A stretch of DNA of 63,336 nt, from contig CAZHMX010000001.1 of NCBI GenBank assembly GCA_964533725.1, positions 1 through 63,336 on the forward strand, given 5' to 3'. Below are positions 8,473 through 48,169 of the stretch, piece by piece; the first letter of the stretch is position 1; every line of letters starts with the position of its first letter. Source of the DNA: an uncultured Alistipes sp. (GTDB lineage: Bacteria > Bacteroidota > Bacteroidia > Bacteroidales > Rikenellaceae). The position numbers and the translations under genes are program-made. A model generated the notes under the pieces. That model was not told the DNA's origin. It did not search any database and saw only the letters and a list, made by a program, of their open reading frames with translations.

Positions 8473-8504
8473 TTTGGATTATTGCGATAAAAGTTCTACT
8501 TTTG
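8473..8504 (+). promoter_or_regulatory. Bacteroidetes sigma-A promoter for the B12 operon
   Basis: TTTG-N20-TACTTTTG immediately 5' of the riboswitch. Confidence 0.75.
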
Positions 8505-8507
8505 CGA

Positions 8508-8682
8508 CGTTGTAGTTCCTTGAGGGGGTTAAAGCCCGAAAGGATTCAAAGGGAATCCGGTGTGAATCCGGAACAGTACCTGCTGCTGTAAGTCCCGTAT
8601 AACGTCACTGCACAAAGTCATTGCTCCCCACGGAGTGAGAAGGCGCAGAGGACGGGGATAAGTCAGAAGACCTGCTGCAACG
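8508..8682 (+). promoter_or_regulatory. Cobalamin riboswitch
   Basis: AAGGGAATCCGGTGTGAATCCGGAACAGTACC..GCTGTAAG, B12 box AGTCAGAAGACCTGC, closing helix CGTTGTAG/CTGCAACG; lies upstream of btu genes. Confidence 0.93.
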
Positions 8683-8791
8683 CGAGGCGATAATGTACCG
8701 CGGGCACTCGGCGATTATCTCAAACTGTATCGGTTCGCCGCTCCGTGCGGTTTTGCGCCGATCTCCGTTTCGGATATACCATACCGTCTTA

Positions 8792-21488: not shown

Positions 21489-22703
21489 GGTGTATTTATT
21501 TGTGTTCTACATCAAACCACAACTGAACCGGATCGCAATATCGGACGGAAGTGTTGTATTTTATTTGTGTTCTACATCAAACCACAACGAATTTTATTTC
21601 AATGCAGAGCCTTTTGTGTTGTATTTTATTTGTGTTCTACATCAAACCACAACGACTTCGGTTTCACAAACGACCCTACCGCGGTTGTATTTTATTTGTG
21701 TTCTACATCAAACCACAACGAATTTTATTTTAACGCGGAACCATTTGTCGTTGTATTTTATTTGTGTTCTACATCAAACCACAACTAACGGCGTAAGTCG
21801 GCATATCGTGTACGGTTGTATTTTATTTGTGTTCTACATCAAACCACAACTATGAGCGGTATTAAAGCGGTCGGTGCATTGTTGTATTTTATTTGTGTTC
21901 TACATCAAACCACAACTTTTGTTGCCTATGTTGATATTGTCCGTAAGTTGTATTTTATTTGTGTTCTACATCAAACCACAACATACCACTGTTTACCTGG
22001 TTTGTTACCAGTGTTGTATTTTATTTGTGTTCTACATCAAACCACAACAAACAAGGTTGTATTGTAAGATGGGATTTGTTGTATTTTATTTGTGTTCTAC
22101 ATCAAACCACAACAAACAAGGTTGTATTGTAAGATGGGATTTGTTGTATTTTATTTGTGTTCTACATCAAACCACAACTCCGTGATCACTCGTCCCTCCT
22201 GTCCATATGTTGTATTTTATTTGTGTTCTACATCAAACCACAACAGAAAACGCCAACACATAATGAAAGGCGTGGGTTGTATTTTATTTGTGTTCTACAT
22301 CAAACCACAACTTACGTATAAAGTAGATTTCCTCGATGTAGTTGTATTTTATTTGTGTTCTACATCAAACCACAACAATCCTGCTCTCGCTATGTCCGGC
22401 GGTGCGTTGTATTTTATTTGTGTTCTACATCAAACCACAACCATGAAAATCATACGAACTCCATGGATTAGTTGTATTTTATTTGTGTTCTACATCAAAC
22501 CACAACAGCACCCAGACGCCCGATCAGTTGTACTTTGTTGTATTTTATTTGTGTTCTACATCAAACCACAACTATCAAAGTTGCCAGGGAACAGGACGGC
22601 AAGTTGTATTTTATTTGTGTTCTACATCAAACCACAACCGGCCATGACGGCGACCATGGCGAAGAGTGTTGTATTTTATTTGTGTTCTACATCAAACCAC
22701 AAC
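21489..22703 (-). CRISPR. Type II-C CRISPR array: 19 repeats (36 bp), 18 spacers (29-31 bp)
   Basis: Repeat GTTGTGGTTTGATGTAGAACACAAATAAAATACAAC (minus strand); degenerate terminal repeat at 21489-21523; leader on the cas2 side. Confidence 0.98.
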
Positions 22704-22839
22704 CTCCGGGCTTTGAAAGTGTTGATTGTTTGTGAATTGCGAGGTTAAACCGTCGCAAAAAAATCAACTGGCACACTCCGGGGAAGTCGATTTGATGCAG
22801 ATTTTGCATTTTTGCAAGCACCTGTCTCATTTCAAAGAA

Positions 22840-22870
22840 CAAAGGTAATAAAAAAATCACCGAATGCAAA
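22840..22870 (-). promoter_or_regulatory. CRISPR leader promoter
   Basis: Minus strand TTTG-N19-TACCTTTG pointing into the array. Confidence 0.8.
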
Positions 22871-23061
22871 TTTTTACTATCGGACCTTGCTACGGTTTCG
22901 TTACACCGAGCGCGAGATCGAATTTGCTTCTGCTGTGCCGAGGCGAGAAAACGGCAGTGGTAAAAAGAACAACAGACCGCGACCCGTATAGGCATAATAT
23001 GCGATATGATCCATATTTATAAAAATCAAACAGTTGCCGCAGCAATTCATGAACTGTTCCA

Positions 23062-23400
23062 TTAAAAAAGTTCCAGTTGTTGCGGTGCCATCGGAGCGGC
23101 TCTTTCAACTTTGCCCCAGAAATTCATTATTTCGCCGTACTGCTTGTCTGTTACGCTCAAAATACTCGTGTAGCCTGTCGGCGGCATCGACTTTCGCACA
23201 CGTTTGATATGTACCTCCCGATTCTCTTTCGACGGGCAGTGGCGAACGTAGACGGAGTATTGCATCATGGTGAATCCGTCTTTTTCCAGCGCCTTTCGGA
23301 ATTGTGCGGCATGGCGTCGCTCGACTTTGGTCGTGGTCGGCAGGTCGAAAAACACAAAAAGCCACATAATCCGGTATGCGTTGAGGCGAATTTCCGACAT
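23062..23400 (-). CDS. cas2: CRISPR-associated endonuclease Cas2
   Basis: MSEIRLNAYRIMWLFVFFDLP...GFTMMQYSVY...TDKQY. Confidence 0.95.
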   Translation of the reverse strand: MSEIRLNAYRIMWLFVFFDLPTTTKVERRHAAQFRKALEKDGFTMMQYSVYVRHCPSKENREVHIKRVRKSMPPTGYTSILSVTDKQYGEIMNFWGKVERAAPMAPQQLELF

Positions 23401-23402
23401 GG

Positions 23403-24290
23403 TTATTCGAGCGACGGATAAACGATCTTTTTCTGTGTTCCGGCAAAACATTTGGCCAGCGAAGCTGTCGTCTGGGTCAGTCCTACATCGAGAGGTCGAG
23501 TAACCTTGCCGAATACGGCATCGACGAACAACAGGCCGAGCAGTTTCGCCTTCACCTCTTTGGTCAGCACCCGTTCGCCCCCGGCATACAATCCGAAGAC
23601 TATTTCGTCCACATACGGGCGGAATGGCTCCATGATATCGTCCGCCAGCGGGAATGCGTTGTAGCGGTTGCGGTGAAAAATCCCGAATGCCGGAAACAGC
23701 CCTGACCCCATAAGCGACCGCGCGACCGCGGCCCGCAGCAGCGTGTAGCCGTAATTCAGGAGGTTGTTGGGTTCGACGCCGTCGCGCGAACGGATGAATC
23801 CGCTGCCGAAAAGTTCCGACCAGTATATTTTGGCGGCTATACCCTCGCGATTGTCCGTGTCGCCGCTCTTGACGTTGGAATAATAGGGTTTCAGTTTGTT
23901 CCCGTCTTTACCGAGTTTGTTTAGCAGTGCCGCCTGATTGCGGATCTTCGCTTCGATGGTCTGTTTCCACAACCCCTTTTTCAACGGTTCGCTGGCTTCA
24001 GTCTGCGCACGGTAACTTTCGCCTTGCGTTTTGTTGGAATCGAGGTTCATCAACATGGCGTTGGGCATAAAGTCCTTGCCGCACAGAATCACCGCAACAT
24101 TATTGTCTGACAGTGCGTTCAGCAACGGCAGGGTGACAGACGTCTGCTGGTGTTCGAGTACAACGAAACCGATATCCTCTATCGGTATGCTTTTCTGCAT
24201 GTCGGGCATCTCCTTCGTGTGGATAATCATTTGATTGTCTCGAAGTTTCAAGCAGTAAGGCGTCGAGAAAAACAGTGCTCTTTTCAACAT
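23403..24290 (-). CDS. cas1: Type II Cas1
   Basis: IPIEDIG, NREGIAAKIYW, LNYGY, GIFH, ADDIMEPFRP motifs. Confidence 0.96.
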   Translation of the reverse strand: MLKRALFFSTPYCLKLRDNQMIIHTKEMPDMQKSIPIEDIGFVVLEHQQTSVTLPLLNALSDNNVAVILCGKDFMPNAMLMNLDSNKTQGESYRAQTEASEPLKKGLWKQTIEAKIRNQAALLNKLGKDGNKLKPYYSNVKSGDTDNREGIAAKIYWSELFGSGFIRSRDGVEPNNLLNYGYTLLRAAVARSLMGSGLFPAFGIFHRNRYNAFPLADDIMEPFRPYVDEIVFGLYAGGERVLTKEVKAKLLGLLFVDAVFGKVTRPLDVGLTQTTASLAKCFAGTQKKIVYPSLE

Positions 24291-24296
24291 GGCGCG

Positions 24297-27200
24297 TCAG
24301 TGTTTAAAGATGATCTCGCCGGTAACCGTTAGTTCGAAATCGTAACCTTCGACGTAGGCGTTTATATTAGAAATGCTTAATCTTAATTTAGCCGGTGGAT
24401 TATTAACGTCTATTTGCGATATACCCTTACCACATTCGGCTTTAATGGCATCGTCGCTACGGGCATCTTGGTGAAATATAAACTGAATACGTCCCTCATT
24501 TGCCATCGCTTTCACCTTGTACAAACGTTTTGCCAGTTCTTTTTTTGAACATTCATATAACTCTTCCGGCGAATTTTCGTAGAACAACACCATCGTTCCC
24601 GTGCGCAGGATGCACTTGAGCGGATTGTCGTTTGCGTCGGACAGCGGAACGAGGTGGTCCGTTCCGCTCTTGCCGTTGAAGTATCGGGCGGCCTCGAGGT
24701 TGTTGATCAACTTGAACGACCGCACGGGCTTTCCCTTTGCATTGGTGCCCTCGTATATGGCCATGCAGTAGTTGCTGTCGTTGACTACATGATAGCTGCG
24801 TTTGTACTCGAAACGGGATTCATCGCGATGTTTCTTCAGCTTGATCGGCTGTGTGATACCCGGCGCGAAGATGCGCACCTTTTTTATATATACACCCTTC
24901 TCGGCATTGAAACAGATCGGTTGGGATACCGCTTTCTTGAAACCGTCGCGTTCGATAGCCGCCTTGACACACTCGCGAACGGCTTTATCTACAATTTTGT
25001 CCACATCGGTTTCTTTAAATTTATCTGCGAGCAATTTGCGAATGACATACTTGACCTCGTCGTTGTGTTTTATCGCCCCGTAAAAATTTTCCTTATGTAG
25101 CATGCCACGTGCCGTATCTCCCTGCGTATATTCCACTTCGCCGCATTCGTTGCGCTTGATTTTCCCCCGTGTACGTAATTTTTTTCGGCTCTGTTTCGGC
25201 ATATTGTCCGCCGTGTGGTGGGAGACGAGCAGTTCGTCCGCGATCGACTTTACATCCTCGGTGAACGTCGGCCACGGTTTGGGGAAATGGGGGCGTTTAC
25301 CCGATTCCGTCCTTTCGTAGTGCTCGGTCTCGGCGACGAAATCTTTCCAGCTTTTATAGGTATTGCCGTCGATGCAGGCGATCGTCACGGCATCTATACA
25401 GTGATGGACGTGGTTCACGCGATTTTTCTTCTCGTACTCCGCCTGCAATCCCCACGCCTTGCGCAGATCTGCGGTCGTCGCGCCTTTGACGATGTAGATG
25501 TTGCTGAACACGGTTTTTAGATACAGCCGGGCATAACGTCCGATGATCCCGATGTCTACCCCCTGGCGGTTGCTGAATCCTTCGGGGACCTCCGTCATCG
25601 TGAAACGGTTGTATTTGCCCTCCCAATAGTCCAGCTCCATTTGCAACCTGTGCCGCTTCTGAATCTCCTGGTCCTTTTTCTCTTTGGTGGAGAAATTGCC
25701 TTTGGTCCTGCTTATTTGTACCCTTAGATCCTCTATTTTCTTCTTCCAACCGAAAGAGGTCTCGATCCGCTCCATGATTTCCTGGTGGTTGGCCAGTTCC
25801 GAGGGCAGTTTGGCGCCTTTGACCTCGCGGTTGAAATGGGCGTCGCACAACGTTTTGTTCATCTGCGAATTGTCGCCGCCTCGCGAGCGCGGAACCGTGT
25901 GCTCGATGTCGAACTGCGGCGACGCGCCAAGAAAATCGCGGATCTCGATTTCTTTGCCAGTGTAAGAACAGAGGCTGATCTTTTTGCCGGTGTAAGGACA
26001 AATGTGCTTTTGTTCCACCCAGAGTTGGTATTTCAGGATATCATCTTCGGTCGGCTCCGCCCCTCCGCCGTATTGTTTGTAATATTCACATATCTCTTCT
26101 TTGTATTTCAGACGCTTCTTATCGTTGTCACGCTGCCATGCCTCTATGGCACGACGCATGTTGGCCGTGTTCAATTCGCGGGCGAACTCGATGTTTACCT
26201 TCGTGTTTTCGTCGATCCGACCCTCTTTCAACAGCCGGTTGACCAAAGCGCGCAGACGGAACAAGGCGCGCATGACCATCGGGTTGCGGACCGATGACGT
26301 AAACGGCAGCCCGAGTTGTCGTATTCCATCCTGGTCGGGCTGGGCAACCTTGTAGGTCTCGATCATCGACGGATGATAGAGTTTGCGGCTGTCGATCTGT
26401 TCGTCGGTCAGTCCGCAATCCCGCAGGCATTCGCCTATCGCCCGCTCTTTTGTGTCGAATTTATCGTAGGGGTTGCGTCTGTAGTTCGCAATCGTATCGG
26501 TGACGCTCGCTTCGATCTCGGCTCTGCGCACTTCGTCGTTCCATACCTCTTTCGGTACGACCGCCGGCAGATTGGCCAGGAATACGGCCTCGTCATAGCG
26601 GCGACCTTGCCGCAAGTGGGGCAGTATTTTGTCTATGGCGTTAAGGCTCAATGCGGCATAACTTTGCGGCATGCGGATCTTGACAAATTCGTCGGCTTGT
26701 TTGTCGGTCAGTTGCAGATTGCATTTTGCCCATTCGCGCAATTTCTCGTCGTCGCTGAATGAAAACAGGGCATGCCATACGTCGTTTACGATCTGCGCTT
26801 CGGTCTTGCCGTCGCCTTTCAGGTAAAGGCTGTGAATCTCTGTTTGCCAGTCGTCGTCGAAAACAGTTTTCAGAGCGGCTGTGACGGGGCAACCTGCAAC
26901 CGATTGCGACATGCAGAAATTAAACCGGTACGGAGCCTCGCTGCGGTCGTCCCGGTAGGCGTAGCTGCCCTTTTTCCCGCCGGCCAACTTCTTGGCTATA
27001 TCCTCGAAGGTGAAATTGCCCTTGCTCTTGCGGTAAAACAGCGGCAGAATCTTCTCGACTTCGGCCTCGGTGAGCGGACGTTCTTCGGGGTCGAGCTGCG
27101 TTTTTATCCGGATGTTGTTGATGAATGACCGCATACGGAACTCCTCGAACCGCGGGTGCGAAATCGGACACCTTGCCTTTTTCTTCTCGAACGTACATCT

Positions 27201-27968
27201 TCCGACCGATCCTTTCTGCGATTTGAGCGGACGCTGGAAGAATATCGCTTTGTACAGGGTCCGGCGCAACTCCTCCCGCAGATTTTGCTTTTCGCAAATG
27301 GCCTGGAACTCCGCCTCGTAATGCTCCTTGCGGGCGGTGTATTGTGTCCGTATCTTTTTGTTTTCGTGATACAGCCTGTAAAAATATTCGCCCAGATAGT
27401 TGCATCCGCATGCCTTCATCTCCGCAGTCAGCTGGCCGATGGAGCTCTTGACTTTGCCGTTCTCTTCGTCTTCTGCCGTCTCTTTGCGGTTGCTCAAGAA
27501 ACCGCGCCGTTGTGCCAAATGATAGAGCGCCCGGCCGAGCAGATGGCGGTCCTGCCGGTTCGACATATCGAGCGTTGTCGTAAGGACCGTATTGCGGTCG
27601 TGATAGGGGTTTTTGTCCTTGTTGTCGTCGGTGCGCTGCCAAAGTAGAAACTCTTCCGTGGCCGGATATCGTTTTTCGTATCTCCACGCGTCTAACTGTT
27701 CGGTTGTCAGACTGGGACACATATCGTTGGCCGCAAGGACTTTAAGCAACTCGATCTTCCGCAGGCGGCGACGGAAATAGTGGCGGCGTGAGGCGCGTGC
27801 CTCGGTGCGGGTCTTTACCGTCGGTTCTTCTCCCTTTTGGGTGCGGTTCACCCCTTCCTGAAATATATCGACGCCCCGGTCTACCAGTTTGTAGCCTTCC
27901 TCTGTCCGTTCGGTAATTGCCCAACCCAATGAATTTGTACCCAGATCCAGTCCTAAAATCTTTGCCAT
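24297..27968 (-). CDS. cas9: Type II-C Cas9 (1223 aa)
   Basis: RuvC-I LGLDLGTNS; Arg-rich bridge helix; RuvC-II NIEFARE; HNH DIEHTVP...NKTLC; RuvC-III HHCIDA; no csn2 or cas4 in the locus. Confidence 0.97.
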   Translation of the reverse strand: MAKILGLDLGTNSLGWAITERTEEGYKLVDRGVDIFQEGVNRTQKGEEPTVKTRTEARASRRHYFRRRLRKIELLKVLAANDMCPSLTTEQLDAWRYEKRYPATEEFLLWQRTDDNKDKNPYHDRNTVLTTTLDMSNRQDRHLLGRALYHLAQRRGFLSNRKETAEDEENGKVKSSIGQLTAEMKACGCNYLGEYFYRLYHENKKIRTQYTARKEHYEAEFQAICEKQNLREELRRTLYKAIFFQRPLKSQKGSVGRCTFEKKKARCPISHPRFEEFRMRSFINNIRIKTQLDPEERPLTEAEVEKILPLFYRKSKGNFTFEDIAKKLAGGKKGSYAYRDDRSEAPYRFNFCMSQSVAGCPVTAALKTVFDDDWQTEIHSLYLKGDGKTEAQIVNDVWHALFSFSDDEKLREWAKCNLQLTDKQADEFVKIRMPQSYAALSLNAIDKILPHLRQGRRYDEAVFLANLPAVVPKEVWNDEVRRAEIEASVTDTIANYRRNPYDKFDTKERAIGECLRDCGLTDEQIDSRKLYHPSMIETYKVAQPDQDGIRQLGLPFTSSVRNPMVMRALFRLRALVNRLLKEGRIDENTKVNIEFARELNTANMRRAIEAWQRDNDKKRLKYKEEICEYYKQYGGGAEPTEDDILKYQLWVEQKHICPYTGKKISLCSYTGKEIEIRDFLGASPQFDIEHTVPRSRGGDNSQMNKTLCDAHFNREVKGAKLPSELANHQEIMERIETSFGWKKKIEDLRVQISRTKGNFSTKEKKDQEIQKRHRLQMELDYWEGKYNRFTMTEVPEGFSNRQGVDIGIIGRYARLYLKTVFSNIYIVKGATTADLRKAWGLQAEYEKKNRVNHVHHCIDAVTIACIDGNTYKSWKDFVAETEHYERTESGKRPHFPKPWPTFTEDVKSIADELLVSHHTADNMPKQSRKKLRTRGKIKRNECGEVEYTQGDTARGMLHKENFYGAIKHNDEVKYVIRKLLADKFKETDVDKIVDKAVRECVKAAIERDGFKKAVSQPICFNAEKGVYIKKVRIFAPGITQPIKLKKHRDESRFEYKRSYHVVNDSNYCMAIYEGTNAKGKPVRSFKLINNLEAARYFNGKSGTDHLVPLSDANDNPLKCILRTGTMVLFYENSPEELYECSKKELAKRLYKVKAMANEGRIQFIFHQDARSDDAIKAECGKGISQIDVNNPPAKLRLSISNINAYVEGYDFELTVTGEIIFKH

Positions 27969-38561: not shown

Positions 38562-39803
38562 ATGAAACACCTTGTATTTTTGTGGGCTTTGCTCGTCGTC
38601 GCCCAGGCGCGCGGGCAGCTGACCGTCGACTCCTACCGTGCCGAGGTGTCGGCCTATAGTCACGAACTGAAAATAGCGGAGGAACAGGTGACCGAGGCCG
38701 CCGAACAGGAGCTGCGCACGCGTACCAACCGGCTGCCCGAACTCTCGGCCGCAGGGGTGTTCTCGGTGGCGATGCGGCAGCACGACGGGGTCAAACCGTG
38801 GTCCTTTTCGCTCGAGCCGGCCATCGTGCAGACGCTCTATGCAGGCGGGTCCTTGCGGGCCGATCGCCGGCGGGCGGCACTGGCTTACGGCGCGGCACTC
38901 GAACAGCAGACCTTTACGCGTTTCGATGTGCGTTATGCGGCCGATTATGCCTATCGGAATCTGGCGGCGATGCGCAGCTACGAGGTGGTGACGGCCGAAT
39001 ATGTCGGGTTGGTCGACTCGCTGAAGCGGGTGGTCGACCTGCGGTTTGCGGAGGGGTATACGGCACGGGGCGATGTGCTGATGATGGAGGCGCAGCTGGC
39101 CCAGGCGCGTTACGACCTGACGGTGGCGGGACAGCAGAGCGAGGTGGCGCTGCACAATTTCAATATCCTGCGCGGTCACGGCGGAGACGAAGGGGTGGTG
39201 CTGGCACAGTCGATCCTCGACAGTCCCGCCATGCCGCGGCGGGTGGCGCTGGGCGAGGTGCTGGCCCGCCGCAACGACTTAGAGGCCGCGCGGTTGCAGT
39301 CGCTCAGCGCCGAGGAGGCTGTCCGGCAGGCCCGCGCCCCCTTCCTTCCGCGGCTTGGGGTAGGGGTGAGCGGTCAGTGGCATCCGCATACGCCCAACCG
39401 CACGGGCCGTACGCTTGTGGACGGAGCCGTGGTGGCCGAGGTGTCGGTTCCGATCTTCCACTGGGGCGAACGTCGGCATGCGGTGTCGGCGGCGCGTGCG
39501 GCGGCCGTGCAGCAGGAACGGCGTGTGGAGCAGCTGCGCGACGAGATCATCCGGCAGGAGCTGAACGGCTGGACGGCGGTGGAGAAGAGCGTCGGGCGGA
39601 TGGTCGCGGTGCGCGAAAACCTGCGCATCGCCCGCGAAAACCTCGATTTGAGCGCCTATTCCTATGGCGAGGGGCTGGTGACGATCCTCGACGTGCTGCA
39701 GGCGCAGCTCAACTGGATTCAGCTGTATACTCATTTGATCGACGCCTACTATGCCTACGCCGTGGCCGTTGCGGACTACGAGCGCGTGGTGGCCGAGCCG
39801 TAG
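38562..39803 (+). CDS. TolC-family outer membrane channel
   Basis: Signal peptide; duplicated OEP pattern; PIFHWG; GLVTILDVLQAQ. Confidence 0.88.
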   Translation: MKHLVFLWALLVVAQARGQLTVDSYRAEVSAYSHELKIAEEQVTEAAEQELRTRTNRLPELSAAGVFSVAMRQHDGVKPWSFSLEPAIVQTLYAGGSLRADRRRAALAYGAALEQQTFTRFDVRYAADYAYRNLAAMRSYEVVTAEYVGLVDSLKRVVDLRFAEGYTARGDVLMMEAQLAQARYDLTVAGQQSEVALHNFNILRGHGGDEGVVLAQSILDSPAMPRRVALGEVLARRNDLEAARLQSLSAEEAVRQARAPFLPRLGVGVSGQWHPHTPNRTGRTLVDGAVVAEVSVPIFHWGERRHAVSAARAAAVQQERRVEQLRDEIIRQELNGWTAVEKSVGRMVAVRENLRIARENLDLSAYSYGEGLVTILDVLQAQLNWIQLYTHLIDAYYAYAVAVADYERVVAEP

Positions 39804-39949
39804 ATTTCTCGGTGCCGCGCGGGCCCGTCGGTCGTCGCGGCGAATAGTGCGGGCGCGGTATCCGGGAGGGGTGCGGCGCTCGATTTTTTTCTCCGTCGCT
39901 GTCGCAAAATCGATTTATTATGTTACCTTTGTGACATAATAGTACGATT

Positions 39950-42940
39950 ATGAAACGATGTATTTTCGCGTTGACCCTGACGTTGTGGCTGCTCGTTCCG
40001 GCGGTGGCTGCGGCAGACGGTCACGACGACGAACAAAGGCGGCGATTTGCCCGTGCCTGCGACCTCTTCGACCGCGGACACTGGACGGACGCGCGCCTGA
40101 TTTTAAGTCGGCTGCGCGATGCGTGGCACTCCGCCGACGCGTTGCCGATTGAGGAGATCGAATATCGTCTGGCCGTATGCGCCGTCGAGTCGGATGCACC
40201 CGAAGCCCCCGAACTGTTGCGCGGTTTTGTCGCCCGTTATCCCGCCTCGTCGCACGGCAATGACATCGAGCTGGCCCTGGCTTCGTGGTGCTGCATCCGC
40301 GAGCGGTGGGAGGAGGCCGAAGCCTCGTTCGCGCGGGTCGATTATGATGCACTCGACGCCGCCGGACGCGAACGTTACGATATGCGGCGCGGCTATATCG
40401 CCTTTATGAACCGGAATTATCCCGCGGCCCGCAACTATTTCGCCAGGATCGACCCGGAGGGGGCGTGCGGCGACCACGCCGTCTATTATCGGGCCTATAT
40501 GGACTACACCGAAGGACAGTACGACGCGGCCGAAACGGGTTTCCGCCGGCTGCTGAAGAGCGCCTCCTACGGTTCGCTGGTCCCCTTCTATCTGTTGCAG
40601 ATCGACTACCGCCGCGGCCGTTACGATCAGGTGATCGAACGGGCTGCGGAGTTGCTCCCGCGTGCGGCGGCCTCGCAGCAGCCCGACCTGCACCGTCTTC
40701 TGGCCGGTGCGCATTTCCATCGCGAGGAGTTCCCGAAGGTGCTCGACGGGCTGAAGAATTACCGCGCGACGGGGGGCGAGGAGGACCGCGAGACCCGCTA
40801 TTTAGAGGGTTACGCCCTCTACCGTCTGGCCCGTTATCCGGAGGCGGCGCCGTTGCTCCGCCAGGTCTGCGGTGCGGACGACGAGCTGACCCAGAATGCC
40901 GCTTATCACCTGGCCGACTGTTATTTGCGTACGGGCGACAAACCCTCGGCCATGCAGGCCTTCGCGATGGCTGCGGGAAACCGGTCCAACCCTTCGCTGG
41001 CCGAAGAGGCCCTCTACAATTACGGTAAACTGCAATACGAACTGGGCGGCGGGCGCTTTAATGAGGCGATCCACATCCTGACGCGCTATCTGAACGACTA
41101 TCCCCGCTCGTCGCGGGCGGTCGAAGTGCGGCGCCTGCTGGCTGCGGCCTATTACAATTCTCGCGATTACGAGGAGGCCTACCGGGCGATGCGCGCACTG
41201 CCCGAACGCGATGCCGAGATGAATGCCGCATTGCAGAAAATCACCTATTTCCGCGGTCTGGATGCCTGGGAGCAGGGCGATCTGACGCGGGCGCAGTCGA
41301 GCCTGAAGGAGTCGGCCGCCATGCGGATCAGCCCGCGTTATGCCTCGCTGGCCAACTTCTGGTTGGGCGAGATCGACTATGCGCAGGAGCGATATGAGGC
41401 CGCCCGCGAACGTTTCGACGACTATCTGCGCCGGGCGCCCCGGACGGAACGCGAATATGCCTTGGCGTGGTACAATCGCGGCTATTGCAGTTTCTCGCAG
41501 GGCCGTTACGACGATGCCGGAGCCGATTTCGACCGCTTTTTGGAACTGTACGCCGCCCGCGACGACTACCGGACCGACGGCCTGAACCGCCGCGCCGACT
41601 GTTTCTATGCGCAGCGGCAGTTCCCGAAGGCCCTTGCGACGTTCGATGCCGCCTTGGCTTCTGGCGGGCGCGGCGCACATTATGCCCGCTACCGCAAAGC
41701 GTTGACTCTGGGCGCCATGGAACGGACCGACGAGAAGATCGCGCTGTTGGAGTCGATCGTGCGTGACGATCGCGGCGACTATGTCTCCGACGCCCTCTAC
41801 GAGCAGGGACATACCTGCCTGACGGCCGAACGCTACGAGGCGGGCGCGCGGGCTCTGGAGGCTTTTGTCGCCCGTTATCCCCGTTCGCCGCGGCTGACGC
41901 AGGCGCTGTTGGACCTGGGACTGGTCCATCTGAATCTGGGGAACGATGCCAAGGCCCTCGACTATTACGGCCGCGTCGTCTCCACGGCTGCGGGAACCAC
42001 CGAGGCGCGTTCGGCACTGAAGGCCGTGCGCGAGATCTATGTTGCGCGCGGCGATGCCTCGGGATACTTCGATTTTGCGAGCCGTGCGGGGGTGGAGCAG
42101 GATATCTCGACCGTGCAGCGCGATTCGCTGACCTTTGCGGCGGCCCGTTCGCTCTACCTCGACGCGCCTTCCGAGGCGGCGGCCCGTTCGCTGCGCAGCT
42201 ATGTGAAGAGCTACGGCGACGGCGCCTATGTTACCGACGCCCTGTACTATCTGTCGCTCTGCCCGCAACCCGACGAACGCGAACGTATTGCGGTGTTGCA
42301 GCAATTGGTGGACCGCGGTGAATCGCCCTACCGGATCGAGGCTCTGGGATCGTTGGCCGCGGCGGCCGAGCAGGAGCGGATGTACGACACCTCGGCTGCA
42401 GCCTGGCAGCAGCTGGCGACGGCGGCTCCGACGGCCCGGCAGCGGCAGCAGGCCTCCGAAGGCTTTGTCCGCATGACCGTGGCGCAGGGTGACGACGGCG
42501 TGTTGCTCGGCGGCTGGGCCGATGCGGTGGCCGCGCTGCCCGATCCGACGGAGCGGGCCTTGCGTGAATCCCGTTTTGCCCGTGCCGGTGCGCTGGAGCG
42601 GGCCGGTCGTCAGGCCGAGGCGCTGGAACTTTACCGCACGTTGAGCGCGGAGGTGCGTTCGGCCGAGGGGGCGGAGTCCAAATATCGTGTGATCGCTGCC
42701 CTGCGCGCCGCGGGGGAGAACGATGCCGCCGAAAAGGCCGTCTTCGAATTTTCGGAGAGCAACTCGCCCCACAACGACTGGCTGGCCCGTGCCTTTATCC
42801 TCCTGGGCGACATCTATCTCGACCGCGGCGACAGTTTCCAGGCGCGAGCCACCTGGCAGAGCGTCGTCGACGGATATACGCCCCGAAATGACGGAATCGT
42901 GGATCAGGCGCGCGGCCGGATCCAACAACTCAATGATTGA
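39950..42940 (+). CDS. Exported tetratricopeptide-repeat protein
   Basis: Signal peptide; many Y/A-patterned TPR helices over 996 aa. Confidence 0.88.
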   Translation: MKRCIFALTLTLWLLVPAVAAADGHDDEQRRRFARACDLFDRGHWTDARLILSRLRDAWHSADALPIEEIEYRLAVCAVESDAPEAPELLRGFVARYPASSHGNDIELALASWCCIRERWEEAEASFARVDYDALDAAGRERYDMRRGYIAFMNRNYPAARNYFARIDPEGACGDHAVYYRAYMDYTEGQYDAAETGFRRLLKSASYGSLVPFYLLQIDYRRGRYDQVIERAAELLPRAAASQQPDLHRLLAGAHFHREEFPKVLDGLKNYRATGGEEDRETRYLEGYALYRLARYPEAAPLLRQVCGADDELTQNAAYHLADCYLRTGDKPSAMQAFAMAAGNRSNPSLAEEALYNYGKLQYELGGGRFNEAIHILTRYLNDYPRSSRAVEVRRLLAAAYYNSRDYEEAYRAMRALPERDAEMNAALQKITYFRGLDAWEQGDLTRAQSSLKESAAMRISPRYASLANFWLGEIDYAQERYEAARERFDDYLRRAPRTEREYALAWYNRGYCSFSQGRYDDAGADFDRFLELYAARDDYRTDGLNRRADCFYAQRQFPKALATFDAALASGGRGAHYARYRKALTLGAMERTDEKIALLESIVRDDRGDYVSDALYEQGHTCLTAERYEAGARALEAFVARYPRSPRLTQALLDLGLVHLNLGNDAKALDYYGRVVSTAAGTTEARSALKAVREIYVARGDASGYFDFASRAGVEQDISTVQRDSLTFAAARSLYLDAPSEAAARSLRSYVKSYGDGAYVTDALYYLSLCPQPDERERIAVLQQLVDRGESPYRIEALGSLAAAAEQERMYDTSAAAWQQLATAAPTARQRQQASEGFVRMTVAQGDDGVLLGGWADAVAALPDPTERALRESRFARAGALERAGRQAEALELYRTLSAEVRSAEGAESKYRVIAALRAAGENDAAEKAVFEFSESNSPHNDWLARAFILLGDIYLDRGDSFQARATWQSVVDGYTPRNDGIVDQARGRIQQLND

Positions 42941-42941
42941 T

Positions 42942-44666
42942 ATGAAACGACTTGCACTGCTTCTTCTCTTGGTGATGCCCGCGCTTGCGGGTGCGCAGAT
43001 CGATACCCGGGTCGAGGTTTCGAAGGCCTATGTGCCCGACGTCGACCCCGCCGCCAAATTAGCTATCGAACCCGATCGTACGGACACCGTCAGGTTGCGT
43101 CCCGACATCGACTATTCGATCACGCCGTCGGCCTATTCGGCTCCTTTTGCCGTGCGGCCCTTTGTGCCGTCGCGCATCTCGTACTGGGAGCTGGACCGCC
43201 CCGATCCTTACTATCTGAAGGCGGGTGTGGGGTTGCCGCTGCGCTCGGTGGTCGACCTCCACGCCTCGACCCAGCACCCCGATGTGGGATATGCCGCGGG
43301 GTGGCTCAACCATGACGGTTTCTACGGCAGGATCCGCAATCTGGCGGACGAAAAGGCGCGGGCGACCCGTACGGACAACCGTTTGGGCGGTGCCGCGGGC
43401 CACTACTTCGGCCGCCATCTGTTGGAGGGGCGTCTGGAGGGCAGTTTGCAGACCGTCAGACGTTACGGCGCCATCGATCCGCTCTTCACCGCGGGCGTGG
43501 GCGATCCCGCGCATTATGCCGACGCGACGGTGGACGTGCGTTTCGGCGACGATTTCAGCGATCTCGGGAAGTTCAACTTCAACATGACGGCCTCGCTGGA
43601 CTATTTCAACGGGCGCAACAAAGGGGTTGCGGGCGGCAAAAACGGACAGTGGGGCGGTGATTTCGGCCTGCGTCTGGGGCGTCGCTTCGGCCATCACGAT
43701 CTGGTTCTGAATGCGGGTTACGGTTTCTGCAAGTTCCTGCCCGACAACGGGTTCGACAAATACCGCATGCGGCGTCTGGACCTCGGGCTGCGTTATGATT
43801 TCCGGGTGCGGTCGATCGATTTCTGCGTGGGTCTGGACTACGTGCACACGGCGACGCTGGACGTCGTGCCCGACGAACGCAACCACTACGTGCTGCCATG
43901 GGCGCAGATCCGTTTCAAGTCCCTCGGCAACGGTCTGGTGCCTTTTATCGAGGTGGACGGCGCCGTCGAGCGCAACGACTACCGTACGTTGGCCCGGGAG
44001 AATCCCTATGTGCTGGCGGGGCTGTTCGGCGTCAAGCCGACCGTGGATTATCGGTTGCGCGGCGGTTTTGCGGGTGCGTTGCGCGAGGGGCGGTTCACCT
44101 ATTCGCTGCGCCTGGAGATCAAGTGGCAGGAGAATGCCCGCTACTGGTATCTGACCGGGGTGCTGCCGACGGACGGAACCTATACGGGCAATCCGCTGTG
44201 GTACAATATGATGACGGCGCGGCGGACCGTCTCGTCGCTCCTCTTCGACCTGCATTGGCACACCCTCTCGGGATTCTATACCGAGGCGCGGGTCCGGGGT
44301 TCGATCCTTGACGACCGCGGACGGGTCGGCGGTGAGCTAATCGGGGGCGGACTGCCGCAGCTGGAGGCTTCGTGCACGGTGGGACTCAAGCGCAGGAAGT
44401 TCGGGGTCTCGGCCCGTGCCGAGGTCGAGAGTGTCCGCAGCTGGTCGGCTTTGCGGCGGAGCATCTCGCCCGACAACCCCTTCACGCTGACCCGCCTGCG
44501 TGTGCCGGTCACCTGCAATCTCTCGTTGCGGGCCGATTGGCACTATTCGCGCCGGCTGACCCTCTTTGCCGAGGGCGACAACCTGGCCGGCGCACGGCTC
44601 TTTCGCTGGGGCGCCTATCCCGAGCCTGGGGTCGGCGTTACGGCGGGCGTGAAGATGACCTTCTGA
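42942..44666 (+). CDS. Outer-membrane beta-barrel protein (TBDT-like, no evident plug)
   Basis: ATG at 42942; signal peptide; alternating beta-strand pattern; C-terminal GVKMTF. Confidence 0.75.
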   Translation: MKRLALLLLLVMPALAGAQIDTRVEVSKAYVPDVDPAAKLAIEPDRTDTVRLRPDIDYSITPSAYSAPFAVRPFVPSRISYWELDRPDPYYLKAGVGLPLRSVVDLHASTQHPDVGYAAGWLNHDGFYGRIRNLADEKARATRTDNRLGGAAGHYFGRHLLEGRLEGSLQTVRRYGAIDPLFTAGVGDPAHYADATVDVRFGDDFSDLGKFNFNMTASLDYFNGRNKGVAGGKNGQWGGDFGLRLGRRFGHHDLVLNAGYGFCKFLPDNGFDKYRMRRLDLGLRYDFRVRSIDFCVGLDYVHTATLDVVPDERNHYVLPWAQIRFKSLGNGLVPFIEVDGAVERNDYRTLARENPYVLAGLFGVKPTVDYRLRGGFAGALREGRFTYSLRLEIKWQENARYWYLTGVLPTDGTYTGNPLWYNMMTARRTVSSLLFDLHWHTLSGFYTEARVRGSILDDRGRVGGELIGGGLPQLEASCTVGLKRRKFGVSARAEVESVRSWSALRRSISPDNPFTLTRLRVPVTCNLSLRADWHYSRRLTLFAEGDNLAGARLFRWGAYPEPGVGVTAGVKMTF

Positions 44667-45297: not shown

Positions 45298-45597
45298 TTA
45301 TCGGTTGTTGCCCGTCAGTTTGCTTTTGGGGGTGTACTGGTTGTGCCCCTCGGGGTTGTTGACCTGGCCGGTGCGGCCCGACGAGGCGCAGGTGCTGCCG
45401 CTGCGCTGGTTGGTCGTTGCGGTGCCGGTGCCACGGCTGCCCGAATTGTTGGAGATGCGGCCGTTGCTGGCCTCATTTTTGACGCCCGTGCTGCGGCTTG
45501 TGCCCGACGTACGGGTCGAGGCTTGGGCTTTGACCGAGCGGGAGGAACCGCTGCGCAAACCGGTTTTGGTCTCTTTGGTGTCTTTGATCTCTTTCAT
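45298..45597 (-). CDS. Small hydrophilic low-complexity protein
   Basis: 99 aa rich in S/T/G/N/R; AT-rich sequence before the ATG; host-like codons; ends with NNPEGHNQYT. Confidence 0.65.
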   Translation of the reverse strand: MKEIKDTKETKTGLRSGSSRSVKAQASTRTSGTSRSTGVKNEASNGRISNNSGSRGTGTATTNQRSGSTCASSGRTGQVNNPEGHNQYTPKSKLTGNNR

Positions 45598-45853
45598 AAT
45601 CGAAAATATTAAGGTGTTACCATGTTTCGGCGTTTTTCAACGCGTTCGATAGATCAAAAAACAAGATCCGTGCCATATTTGGACCCGCGTGGTGGTCTGG
45701 CGGTTTCCGGCAAGGGTGGGGTCCCGATCCTGCCTCGACGAGCGCAGGGTTATCAAGATGCGTTTCCTGGCCTGTCAAGGAGATTGCTCGATAATTCTGT
45801 CTGGTCGATCCCGGTCCGGTTTCACTTGAGGCGTTGGAAGGAGAATAAAAAAA

Positions 45854-45950
45854 GGGTAAGCTACTTATATCGCACCGCTACAACCGCATACCCTTGCTCA
45901 ATTCCTTGCCTGGGGGATTCTGCAGGAGCTGGTCGTATAAGACTTACCCG
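45854..45950 (-). ncRNA. ffs: Signal recognition particle RNA (4.5S)
   Basis: Terminal stem GGGTAAG/CTTACCC; helix-8 core CAGG-CAA-GGAA-TTG-AGCA; promoter TTTG-N19-TACCTTTG at 45955-45985; followed by a T-tract. Confidence 0.9.
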
Positions 45951-46217
45951 AATGCAAAGGTACTGCTTTTTTTCGTTTTGCCAAACAAAAACGGTAAAAA
46001 AGCCGGGACACCCCATCAAAATAGGGTCCGGATGGCAGGATTCATGACCGCGCGGTTTCGTCGCGGCGGTGTCGCGGTCGTGCCGAACTGTAAAAGCTCC
46101 GAATATTTCGTGAATTTTCATGCGATTTAATGCGTAATAATAACGACGAATCGTCGTTTGCATTTGTTGTTTAGGCTGAAAAAAACAGTATATTTGTGTG
46201 TTAAAACGACCCGAACC

Positions 46218-47666
46218 ATGGCTTACGAAATATTTATCAGCTACCGGCGAAGCAACGAGCAATTGTGGACCAACGGCACGGAGATCGCCCGATCCATAAA
46301 ACAGCAGCTCGAACTGTGCGGGTATCGCGGGCGCATCTTCTTCGATTACAGCGTCGAGGAGATGGACGATTATTTCGAGACCGTCATCCTCTCCAGTCTC
46401 GAGAAATGCAAACTGTTGATCCTGGTGCTGTCGCGCGACTCGATGGGGCGCGTCGTGAACGACGGGGACTGGGTGCGTCGCGAAGTGTTGCGTGCCAAAC
46501 AGTGCGGGTTGAAGATTATCCCCGTCGACCCCGACAAACAGTTCGACGGATTTCCGGCCGGACTGCCCGAGGAACTCTCTTTCCTGCCGCGTATACAACG
46601 CACGGTAATTCATATGGACGAGGGTTTCGAGAATGATATCGACCGACTTATCGAACGCAGAATCAAGGCGGTAGTGCCGCCGTCGGGGACGTCGTATTGG
46701 GGCCGCTACGGGACGACTATCATTAGTGCGATCGTTGCGGTGGGTGTCGTTATGGGCTTTGCGTTGTTTCGGTCCACAGCGGATCCGAGTCTCACGCCGA
46801 CTACAGAATCCGATACCGAGGTGTTAGCCGACGGGAATGTTACTCCGGGATCTTCGAACCAAGAGAAGCCCTCGTCCAAGGTGAACCACCAAGAGGAATT
46901 CGCCGATGCGCAACGGAAGAAAGATGAAGAGGCCAAACGTCAACAGCAACTCGAGGAACAACGGAAGAAGGAAGAGGAAGCCAAGCGCAGTTCGGCCTTG
47001 AATATCGAGATGGTCTATGTCGCTGGCGGAACGTTTATGATGGGCGCATCTTTATATGATCCGGGGGCTTACGGTGATGAGAGACCTGCCCACAGCGTTA
47101 CGTTGTCGGGCTATTATATCGGGAGGTACGAGGTTACGCAGAAGCAGTGGGTGAGGATAATGGGTTCGAACCCGAGCAGATGGAAAGGCGATAACTTACC
47201 TGTGGAGAATGTAAGCTGGGAAGATATTCAGGAATTTCTTCGTAAGCTGAATGCGAGGACGGGAAAGAACTATCGTCTGCCGACGGAGGCGGAATGGGAG
47301 TTTGCGGCGCGCGGTGGCAACAGCAGCTGTGGTTACAAATACAGCGGGAGCGATAATATCGGTAATGTAGCGTGGTACAAAGACAACTCCGGTTCAAAGA
47401 CACATCCGGTAGGCACCCAATCTCCGAATGAGTTAGGGATTTATGATATGGCGGGAAACGTTTATGAGTGGTGCCAGGATTGGTACGATGGTTACAGCAG
47501 TGCGGCGCAGACAAATCCCACGGGTCCGTCCTCGGGTGCTCTCCGCGTGCTCCGCGGTGGTAGTTGTTTCAACTACGCAAAGTACTGCCGTGTTTCGAGC
47601 CGGTACGACTACGCGCCGGGCAGCAGGTTCATCAACTGCGGCTTTCGCCTCGCGACCTCTCTTTAG
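46218..47666 (+). CDS. TIR domain - transmembrane helix - FGE-sulfatase (C-type lectin fold) protein
   Basis: TIR: IFISYRR...WVRRE...IIPV; TM: IISAIVAVGVVMGFALF; FGE: GGTFMMG, YEVTQ, RLPTEAEWEFAARGG, PNELGIYDMAGNVYEW, RGGS...GFR. Confidence 0.9.
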   Translation: MAYEIFISYRRSNEQLWTNGTEIARSIKQQLELCGYRGRIFFDYSVEEMDDYFETVILSSLEKCKLLILVLSRDSMGRVVNDGDWVRREVLRAKQCGLKIIPVDPDKQFDGFPAGLPEELSFLPRIQRTVIHMDEGFENDIDRLIERRIKAVVPPSGTSYWGRYGTTIISAIVAVGVVMGFALFRSTADPSLTPTTESDTEVLADGNVTPGSSNQEKPSSKVNHQEEFADAQRKKDEEAKRQQQLEEQRKKEEEAKRSSALNIEMVYVAGGTFMMGASLYDPGAYGDERPAHSVTLSGYYIGRYEVTQKQWVRIMGSNPSRWKGDNLPVENVSWEDIQEFLRKLNARTGKNYRLPTEAEWEFAARGGNSSCGYKYSGSDNIGNVAWYKDNSGSKTHPVGTQSPNELGIYDMAGNVYEWCQDWYDGYSSAAQTNPTGPSSGALRVLRGGSCFNYAKYCRVSSRYDYAPGSRFINCGFRLATSL

Positions 47667-47865
47667 TTTGTTTGGAGTATATCCAATCCGCAACTTAAGC
47701 TAAAAAGAAGAAATGAGGTCTCGTGACCGCTGTGTACATCAGGCATGCGGCTGTCCCGATGCCGAATAAGCGCGGCTTTCGCAAGAGTCTGTAAATTTCA
47801 TCCTCCGTGATCTGCGGGGCGCTGTTGCCGATGGTGTGCGGGCGGGGCGGCCGGAGCGCAAGGAT

Positions 47866-47917: not shown

Positions 47918-48169
47918 TTACAACGCGTTCACGTGGAGCTGCAGGGCACCTTTGAGGTTGCCGGCCTTGTTCTTGTGGATGATGTTGGTCTTGGCCAACT
48001 TGTCCAGCATCGAGGTTACCTTCGGGAGGAGTGCCTCGGCGGCGGCTTTGTCGGTGGTGTTGCGCAGGGCCTTCACGGCGTTGCGAGCGGTCTTGTGATA
48101 CAGACGGTTGTGCAGACGCTTGGTTGCCGTCTGACGGATACGTTTTTTCGATGACTTATGGTTTGCCAT
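47918..48169 (-). CDS. rpsT: 30S ribosomal protein S20
   Basis: [13 protein letters not shown]...IIHKNKA. Confidence 0.97.

Follow-up and report, generated by a model that had tools for sequence, protein, structure and literature searches.

The 63,336-nucleotide stretch of DNA analysed here (the window), from an uncultured Alistipes sp., holds between two housekeeping genes a gene that raises the question of whether this bacterium carries a Toll-like receptor, as a preliminary description of the locus proposed, and what such a protein would sense and do. The gene (P0001; 46218..47666, + strand) encodes a 482-aa protein in which ORF and domain matches place a TIR domain, a transmembrane (TM) helix, a stalk and an FGE-type C-type lectin (CLec) domain, in that order. 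Its ORF is uninterrupted, with zero internal stops over 482 codons' worth of protein. The gene had been described as stand-alone, and this was borne out: it is flanked upstream by the Bacteroidales small SRP RNA (ffs; 45850..45956, −, an RNA family match) and downstream by rpsT (47918..48169, −, ORF and Pfam), both outside the system, with no partner gene. A candidate promoter element lies at 46189..46196 (+), a sequence match to the Bacteroidetes −7 box, whose consensus we take to be TAnnTTTG; the same match precedes two paralogues described below, and a sigma-70 promoter scan gave no useful result. GC content by part of the gene is 0.52-0.60, against 0.598 for the window. The assembly of this genome (G000) comprises 1.98 Mb in 191 contigs and is 82% complete. 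P0001 forms a singleton cluster in the protein collection searched, and no match to it occurs at rpsT in any of the 29 congener loci scanned; an empty site was undefinable, the SRP RNA being absent within 1.5 kb of rpsT in 20 of these loci.

The TIR domain occupies residues 1-154 (46218..46679, +). Although Pfam TIR_2 matches residues 5-108 barely above its cut-off (28.4 vs 28 bits), the AlphaFold2 model of the domain has a pLDDT of 91.7, and a fold search with it returned SARM1 at Z 19.9 (rmsd 2.0, 135 residues aligned), compared with Z 14.2 for the best non-SARM1 chain, 13-14 for TIRs of the IL-1R family and MyD88, and 9.2 for TLR1. A profile of 52 TIR relatives gave E 3e-37 for SARM1/TIR-1 against 1e-3 for the family ranked next, and even as a single sequence the P0001 TIR matched SARM1 at E 6e-9. 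Profile, sequence and fold thus all point to SARM1/TIR-1 (PDB 9HQ0, 8P2M) as the nearest TIR of solved structure, a resemblance from which we make no claim of origin. E89 (46482..46484, +), within the WVRRE motif that the preliminary description had singled out as bearing a putative catalytic Glu, aligns with catalytic E642 of SARM1 (numbering counted on chain 7knq) and is unchanged in 52/52 aligned TIRs. Across the same alignment F6, Y9, R10, R11, D43 and F53 are likewise invariant and W85 is present in at least 90%. The model, the fold search and this alignment all agree with an N-terminal TIR, and the SARM1-like fold, E89 and the retained pocket residues, which are shared with SARM1, support one of the catalytic type.

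The likeness has limits, however. P0001 is 29% identical to SARM1 and lacks its ARM and SAM domains, and its BB loop (SVEEMDD) carries a one-residue insertion and does not match the SARM1 motif E(R/K)LEAG. The BB-loop Gly, listed as important for SARM1 catalysis in the accessible part of PMC7075850, is absent from P0001 and present in both paralogues, and the family Cys79 is replaced by Val; we count these changes against TIR activity. Weighing both sides, we consider the P0001 TIR rather probably an active NADase. The accessible part of PMC7075850 reports that no bacterial SARM1 homologues were found, while that of PMC13142454 notes a mainly bacterial clade with SARM1 inside and states that oligomerisation is the trigger of TIR activity. 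A homodimer prediction for the P0001 TIR scored 0.21 (mark 0.42). Among named relatives of the TIR, the nearest bears the label Alistipes sp., and a search of phage records for the TIR gave zero matches.

Only about 105 residues (helix, linker and stalk) separate the TIR from the lectin fold. Residues 166-184 (46713..46769, +) are the sole segment of the protein to exceed a Kyte-Doolittle threshold of 1.6 over 19 residues, with a mean hydropathy of 2.32, and hydropathy, family charge bias and the model together predict a single transmembrane helix here. It is followed by a low-confidence linker rich in Ser, Thr, Pro and acidic residues (185-221; 46770..46880, +), for which no relative was found among the fetched sequences, and by a charged helical stalk (222-259; 46881..46994, +). 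The duplicated decapeptide QRKK(D/E)EEAKR noticed earlier is indeed present in the stalk, at residues 232-241 and 248-257 (46911-46940 and 46959-46988, +), the two copies being identical at 24/30 nt. The full-length model (10 sequences; mean pLDDT 67.7) shows a helix at 163-182 with pLDDT <50, disorder to 221, a helix at 222-259 and then the FGE domain. The protein opens directly with the TIR, at the Met shared with its relatives, which leaves no space for a signal peptide; the preliminary description had likewise reported none.

For the orientation of the protein we turned to its family. Among 41 TIR+FGE proteins, 36 taken from the best 120 of 2258 matches and 5 from elsewhere, a sample biased to membrane forms because the query itself is one, 34 have a hydrophobic helix between both domains, and in 32 of these 34 the TIR-side flank is the richer in Lys/Arg. 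The two exceptions include P0001, with Lys/Arg at 1 vs 1 within 15 residues of the helix; at wider flanks of 20-25 residues it follows the rule (4-5 vs 1), and its C-terminal flank is acidic. The proposed topology of TIR inside and lectin outside therefore stands as a prediction, and P0001 very likely spans the inner membrane once.

The C-terminal domain (residues 264-479; 47007..47654, +) matches Pfam FGE-sulfatase at E 1e-51. Its best PDB match by sequence is TvpA (E 4e-42, the next at 8e-25), and TvpA is also the best match in a fold search. Alignments to the FGE enzyme structures 6s07, 5nxl and 6muj sharpen the earlier remark that an obvious catalytic Cys pair is lacking: the first Cys of the CxxxxC motif aligns with N452, whereas the second is kept as C457, and the NRY insert is absent. 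With TvpA as the best match and the Cys pair not intact, the domain is best regarded as a non-enzymatic binding scaffold of the TvpA-like type.

Two features were missing from the preliminary description, namely a DGR variable repeat (VR) at the tip of the lectin domain and two paralogues elsewhere in the genome. The VR covers the last 37 codons (47541..47651, +), as the stretch compared between paralogues and templates; its exact ends depend on the cognate template, and it was scored here against templates from congeners of the same genus. Over 47541-47651, in three genes against seven congener templates, 18-24/27 variable columns face a template A, vs 8-14/84 constant columns, an adenine bias with Fisher p of 9e-8 to 2e-13, although the seven templates are kin and the p-values are therefore not independent. 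Template AAC codons are faced by residues 442, 451-453, 456, 463-465, 469 and 471-474 of P0001, and each of the 13 AAC codons in the closest template corresponds to NNC in P0001 and both paralogues. Codon positions give the same contrast: in the last 110 nt, 22/25 variable columns fall at positions 1-2, vs 36/111 in the upstream FGE region (p 5e-7), where 75/111 variable columns of the three genes fall at third positions. Third-position differences number 3/36 in the VR vs 59/157 upstream, and 2/36 vs 62/157, a greater likeness that is expected from overwriting by a shared template. The tip of P0001 thus carries the marks of adenine-directed DGR rewriting, and all three genes were very probably served in trans by one template.

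The paralogues, P0077 (G000 C20:18049-19545, −) and P0078 (G000 C152:1160-2737, −), were found by genome search and each stand alone among unrelated genes. Both have a TIR, a beta domain, a coil and an FGE domain, without a membrane helix, and they carry the same tip, whose use is consequently not confined to the periplasm. Differences between their VRs are nearly restricted to template-A columns: of the 21 columns at which the two disagree, 19 have A in the majority of templates. Each also retains a strongly folding 3′ hairpin, so that as DGR targets the pair seem fresher than P0001. P0001 departs from them at columns other than template A in 4/18 and 4/21 differences, and active target/template pairs show 0-3 such mismatches, which makes it borderline. 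It differs from both paralogues at the non-template-A sites 47564 and 47567, the latter converting the conserved GGSW Trp to Cys (W450C), and three further changes relative to the paralogues lie in its last codons. A 3′ tract common to all three genes (47652..47704, +) runs through and past the stop codon and is likely a homing (IMH-type) element; the hairpin inside it (47662-47704) is kept in P0001. By folding and alignment a second hairpin (47715..47770, +) has a fully paired 8-bp core stem in P0077 and P0078 and is eroded in P0001 (z −1.56 vs −4.91 and −5.45).

Searches of the 82%-complete genome with the VR (blastn), for AAC-rich stretches, with PF00078 and with two congener RTs (tblastn) brought up neither a DGR RT nor an accessory gene or template. 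Taken with the non-A changes and the eroded distal hairpin, this suggests that P0001, probably a remote target, is somewhat more probably than otherwise no longer rewritten. The sole RT of the genome (G000 C14:26320-28083, +) is retron-like, with a long C-terminal extension and a best match, under the cut-off, to retron Ec67-type fusions.

The congeners show what such machinery looks like when it is intact. An RT related to a congener DGR RT occurs in 22/376 genus genomes, in 9 of those at an identity of at least 51%, and a template was recovered at 7 of these 9 loci; the cassettes run in the order target-HRDC-RT-TR. Remote targeting by these HRDC-type DGRs occurs within the genus. A target on C117 of genome G393 differs from the template on C6 at 17/35 A and 1/76 non-A positions, and two in G003 differ from theirs at 18/31 A and 0/80 non-A (C39) and at 20/31 A and 2/80 non-A (C17); two G266 genes have 17-19/77 non-A mismatches to the template, and at two congener loci checked for trans targets no match was found. 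One cassette each in G393 and G171 contains a kinase-TM-stalk-FGE target, a use of the receptor layout with another cytoplasmic output. These Ser/Thr kinase targets lie at L040:1588-3606, L144 and L131:2146-3996, one of them in trans. Some 470 nt beyond the VR of one remote G003 target we also observed a nearly template-like second repeat (L047:1094-1205; 7/31 A and 5/80 non-A changes).

Relatives of the P0001 VR itself are distant. A DNA search matched 9/375 other genus genomes, at 83% identity at most and with two candidates scored per genome, and pattern scans gave 9 distant loci in genome contigs and 0 in metagenome contigs. A motif screen added 80 loci with neither a close VR nor a TIR-FGE gene beside the RT. 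No full-length TIR-TM-FGE match appeared in a search of 301 genomes of the order, none of the loci and genomes searched has such a gene in cis with a DGR cassette, and a profile search of 1.84 billion representatives was dominated by tandem-FGE proteins. The DGR cassette on C55 of G003 (L128:404-5236) sits directly upstream of an orthologue (43% identity) of the window's TPR gene at 39950-44666; in the 150-nt gap before the latter (39800-39950) no cassette remnant was found by eye or blastn.

The two ends of P0001 have different nearest kin. Its FGE domain is closest to those of the helix-less paralogues (78-81% identity), and its TIR is sister to that of a helix-less TIR-Sel1-DUF1566-like protein (85% identity, SH-aLRT 100) in a quick tree of 84 rows, whose labels miscall some FGE proteins as "other". 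By sequence comparison P0001 is thus a recent mosaic. Among the 34 helix-bearing TIR+FGE proteins, inspected by eye, only P0001, P0255 and P0280 have VR-like tips, the rest being conserved. P0063, P0228-P0248 and P0252-P0272 are TIR-TM-FGE proteins of this second kind, seemingly fixed-specificity versions of the layout. Three more genus genes (L056, L061, L063) combine TM and FGE with another TIR type, and of the 7 TIR genes in the P0001 genome, 4 encode a helix C-terminal to this domain. Besides those above it holds three TIR-helix proteins and one TIR-Pro-rich-Lcl_C protein (G000 C71:4363-6075, C11:4090-5331, C13:15836-17026 and C85:2736-3722); the C-terminal regions of the three match no Pfam family, and the set gives this genome of 2 Mb a small repertoire of TIR receptors.

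Building on the domain order, the type of TIR and the origin of the tip, and on the predicted topology, we infer that P0001 may be a self-contained, DGR-written sensor in which ligand clustering leads to SARM1-like NAD+ cleavage, likely as abortive defence; we give this reading about an even chance. A lectin tip selected from a DGR library would bind a multivalent ligand in the periplasm, the bound ligand would draw the stalks and helices together, and the clustered TIRs would then assemble and start to cleave NAD+. Activation by ligand clustering is, taken alone, an evenly balanced proposition. The disordered linker of about 40 residues between helix and stalk would loosen mechanical coupling. 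That the ligand is part of a phage or another invader reaching the periplasm is conceivable but doubtful. Genomic context gives no support for defence, as no PADLOC model matched P0001 and its immediate neighbours, ffs and rpsT, are housekeeping genes; SIR2_2, STALD and ThsA_Macro had no match in the genome, in a search in which two of the three controls matched nowhere. A broader and quite tentative extension, which we regard as rather unlikely, is that one DGR template in gut Bacteroidales rewrites in trans the tips of membrane and cytoplasmic sensors, whether SARM1-like NADases or Ser/Thr kinases, as an adaptive repertoire beside fixed-tip relatives. P0001 would then be its envelope-watching member, a hypermutated single-pass receptor sensing invaders before they enter the cytoplasm.

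One may postulate instead that P0001 is a retired mosaic of little or no current function, a lectin shuffled onto a TIR and helix, with the DGR since lost and the TIR weak or uncoupled. Its singleton status, the different kin of its TIR and FGE domains, W450C, the eroded hairpin and the altered BB loop all fit such a history, and the accessible part of PMC4891356 describes, for Treponema, leftover targets that persist with neither RT nor TR. The ORF is intact, however, with a promoter-box match and the catalytic-pocket residues retained, and the layout recurs with other TIR clades (L056, L061 and L063, and 34/41 proteins in the biased sample), which points to selection for the architecture; we hold retirement to be a serious but fairly unlikely explanation.

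A second alternative would make P0001 a signalling receptor and not a killer, answering to an envelope, host or community ligand by producing a cyclic-ADPR-type messenger, or by nucleating the TIR paralogues of the cytoplasm, and so acting on an effector whose gene lies elsewhere. The accessible part of 10.64898/2025.12.03.692087 describes cADPR as a product of SARM1 and as a signal used by some bacterial TIRs. The pairing of the same ectodomain with Ser/Thr kinases and the number of helix-bearing TIR genes in the genome lend this some weight. Yet no effector gene adjoins P0001, whereas Thoeris TIR genes lie in operons with their effector, and we judge a purely signalling role distinctly unlikely.

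A third alternative is that the hydrophobic segment fails to span the membrane, or that the TIR is freed by proteolysis, with sensing in the cytoplasm as in the helix-less paralogues. The shared tip of P0077 and P0078, the low pLDDT of the helix and the weak local charge bias of P0001 would be consistent with this; against it stand the 19-residue mean hydropathy of 2.32, the acidic C-terminal flank and the positive-inside pattern in 32/34 family members, leaving it a small probability. The last would make the C-terminal domain a genuine enzyme of the formylglycine-generating or EgtB/PvdO type. It draws on Pfam and NCBIfam matches to those families and is largely refuted already, and so very nearly negligible: every NCBIfam score of P0001 is far under its cut-off, a hypervariable codon lies opposite the first catalytic Cys, no NRY insert is present and TvpA scores far higher.

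Returning to P0001 as a proposed ligand-gated, DGR-written TIR sensor, we compared it with known systems. Of the proposed Toll-like architecture, the single-span receptor layout is upheld as a prediction; homology to TLRs is not. Animal Toll-like/IL-1 receptors, as laid out in the accessible part of PMC7075850, pass the membrane once with the sensor outside and the TIR inside, the logic predicted here, but have N-terminal LRR or Ig domains, whereas P0001 has an N-terminal TIR of SARM1-like type, a C-terminal lectin fold and no LRR match, and its orientation is reversed. It is by analogy comparable to a Toll-type receptor and is not a member of that class. Thoeris, CBASS and Pycsar have an effector or cyclase operon; P0001 has none and no PADLOC match, its ThcB4 score being 18 bits against a cut-off of 220.

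Other parallels come from DGR targets. STAND NTPase-FGS conflict systems and DGR "antigen sensors" pair a TIR effector with a hypervariable FGS/CLec sensor, as P0001 does, and such TIR-STAND-FGS sensors, some predicted periplasmic, have been proposed as adaptive-immunity analogues (accessible parts of PMC8195603 and PMC10907252). They are, however, built around a central NTPase, whereas P0001 has no NTPase, adaptor, MoxR or vWA, and its host is not known to be a multicellular bacterium. Across 12/13 supplement files of PMC8195603 the string "TIR+TM+FGS" has a single occurrence, for a gene neighbour listed in an Anaerolineales row. FGE domains are drawn as predicted STAND sensors in a figure legend of PMC13581612. 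TvpA and the remote FGE-type targets of the HRDC-type Treponema denticola DGR (PDB 2Y3C; accessible part of PMC4891356) carry, like P0001, a C-terminal VR on an FGE-type CLec, and the congener cassettes share that DGR's target-HRDC-RT-TR layout. The available portion of PMC5758913 classes these targets as architecture C, category b, and together with that of PMC4891356 describes several dispersed targets per genome and leftover and remote targets, some in genomes without RT or TR; in these portions most Treponema targets are predicted lipoproteins, in contrast to the cytoplasmic TIR and membrane helix of this Bacteroidales protein. TIR-CLec DGR targets are given for Nostoc CENA543 in a supplement row of PMC7517822. 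Cyanobacterial TIR-CLec and kinase-CLec targets in the same source resemble P0001 in having an effector grafted onto a diversified CLec, with remote paralogues, but are mostly predicted cytosolic and from multicellular hosts; the membrane-spanning TIR form was not encountered in its accessible part.

The term "TIR" is absent from the main texts of 10.1101/2024.11.15.621889, PMC8144416 and PMC11661182, whose supplements could list such targets, and "FGE" is absent from 10.64898/2025.12.03.692087 and PMC9092222; our literature searches returned no paper that tests a TIR-TM-CLec receptor or takes one as its subject. The idea of TIR-lectin DGR sensors is already in print, and P0001 adds a one-gene form, predicted to span the membrane, with a SARM1-like TIR. 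The function of cellular DGR targets is called an open question in the accessible part of PMC10907252, and the hypervariable immune sensors proposed so far are large multi-gene or NTPase systems. P0001 is minimal by comparison and would place a bacterial SARM1-like TIR family under receptor control. With an NAD+ readout, a one-residue null (E89A), helix-less paralogues as controls and intact congener cassettes, it could probe whether a DGR-written tip controls a death or signalling enzyme across a membrane, within the limits that the concept has been published, that this copy has probably ceased to vary and that its host is represented only by an incomplete assembly.

Three further features of the window were observed. 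A low-complexity ORF of 99 aa without a Pfam match (45298-45597, −) lies between a PepSY-like gene and the SRP RNA, a cobalamin riboswitch is present at 8496-8693 (+), and about 18 kb from P0001, at 22134-27968, are genes for Cas9 and Cas1, a likely cas2 and a putative repeat array.
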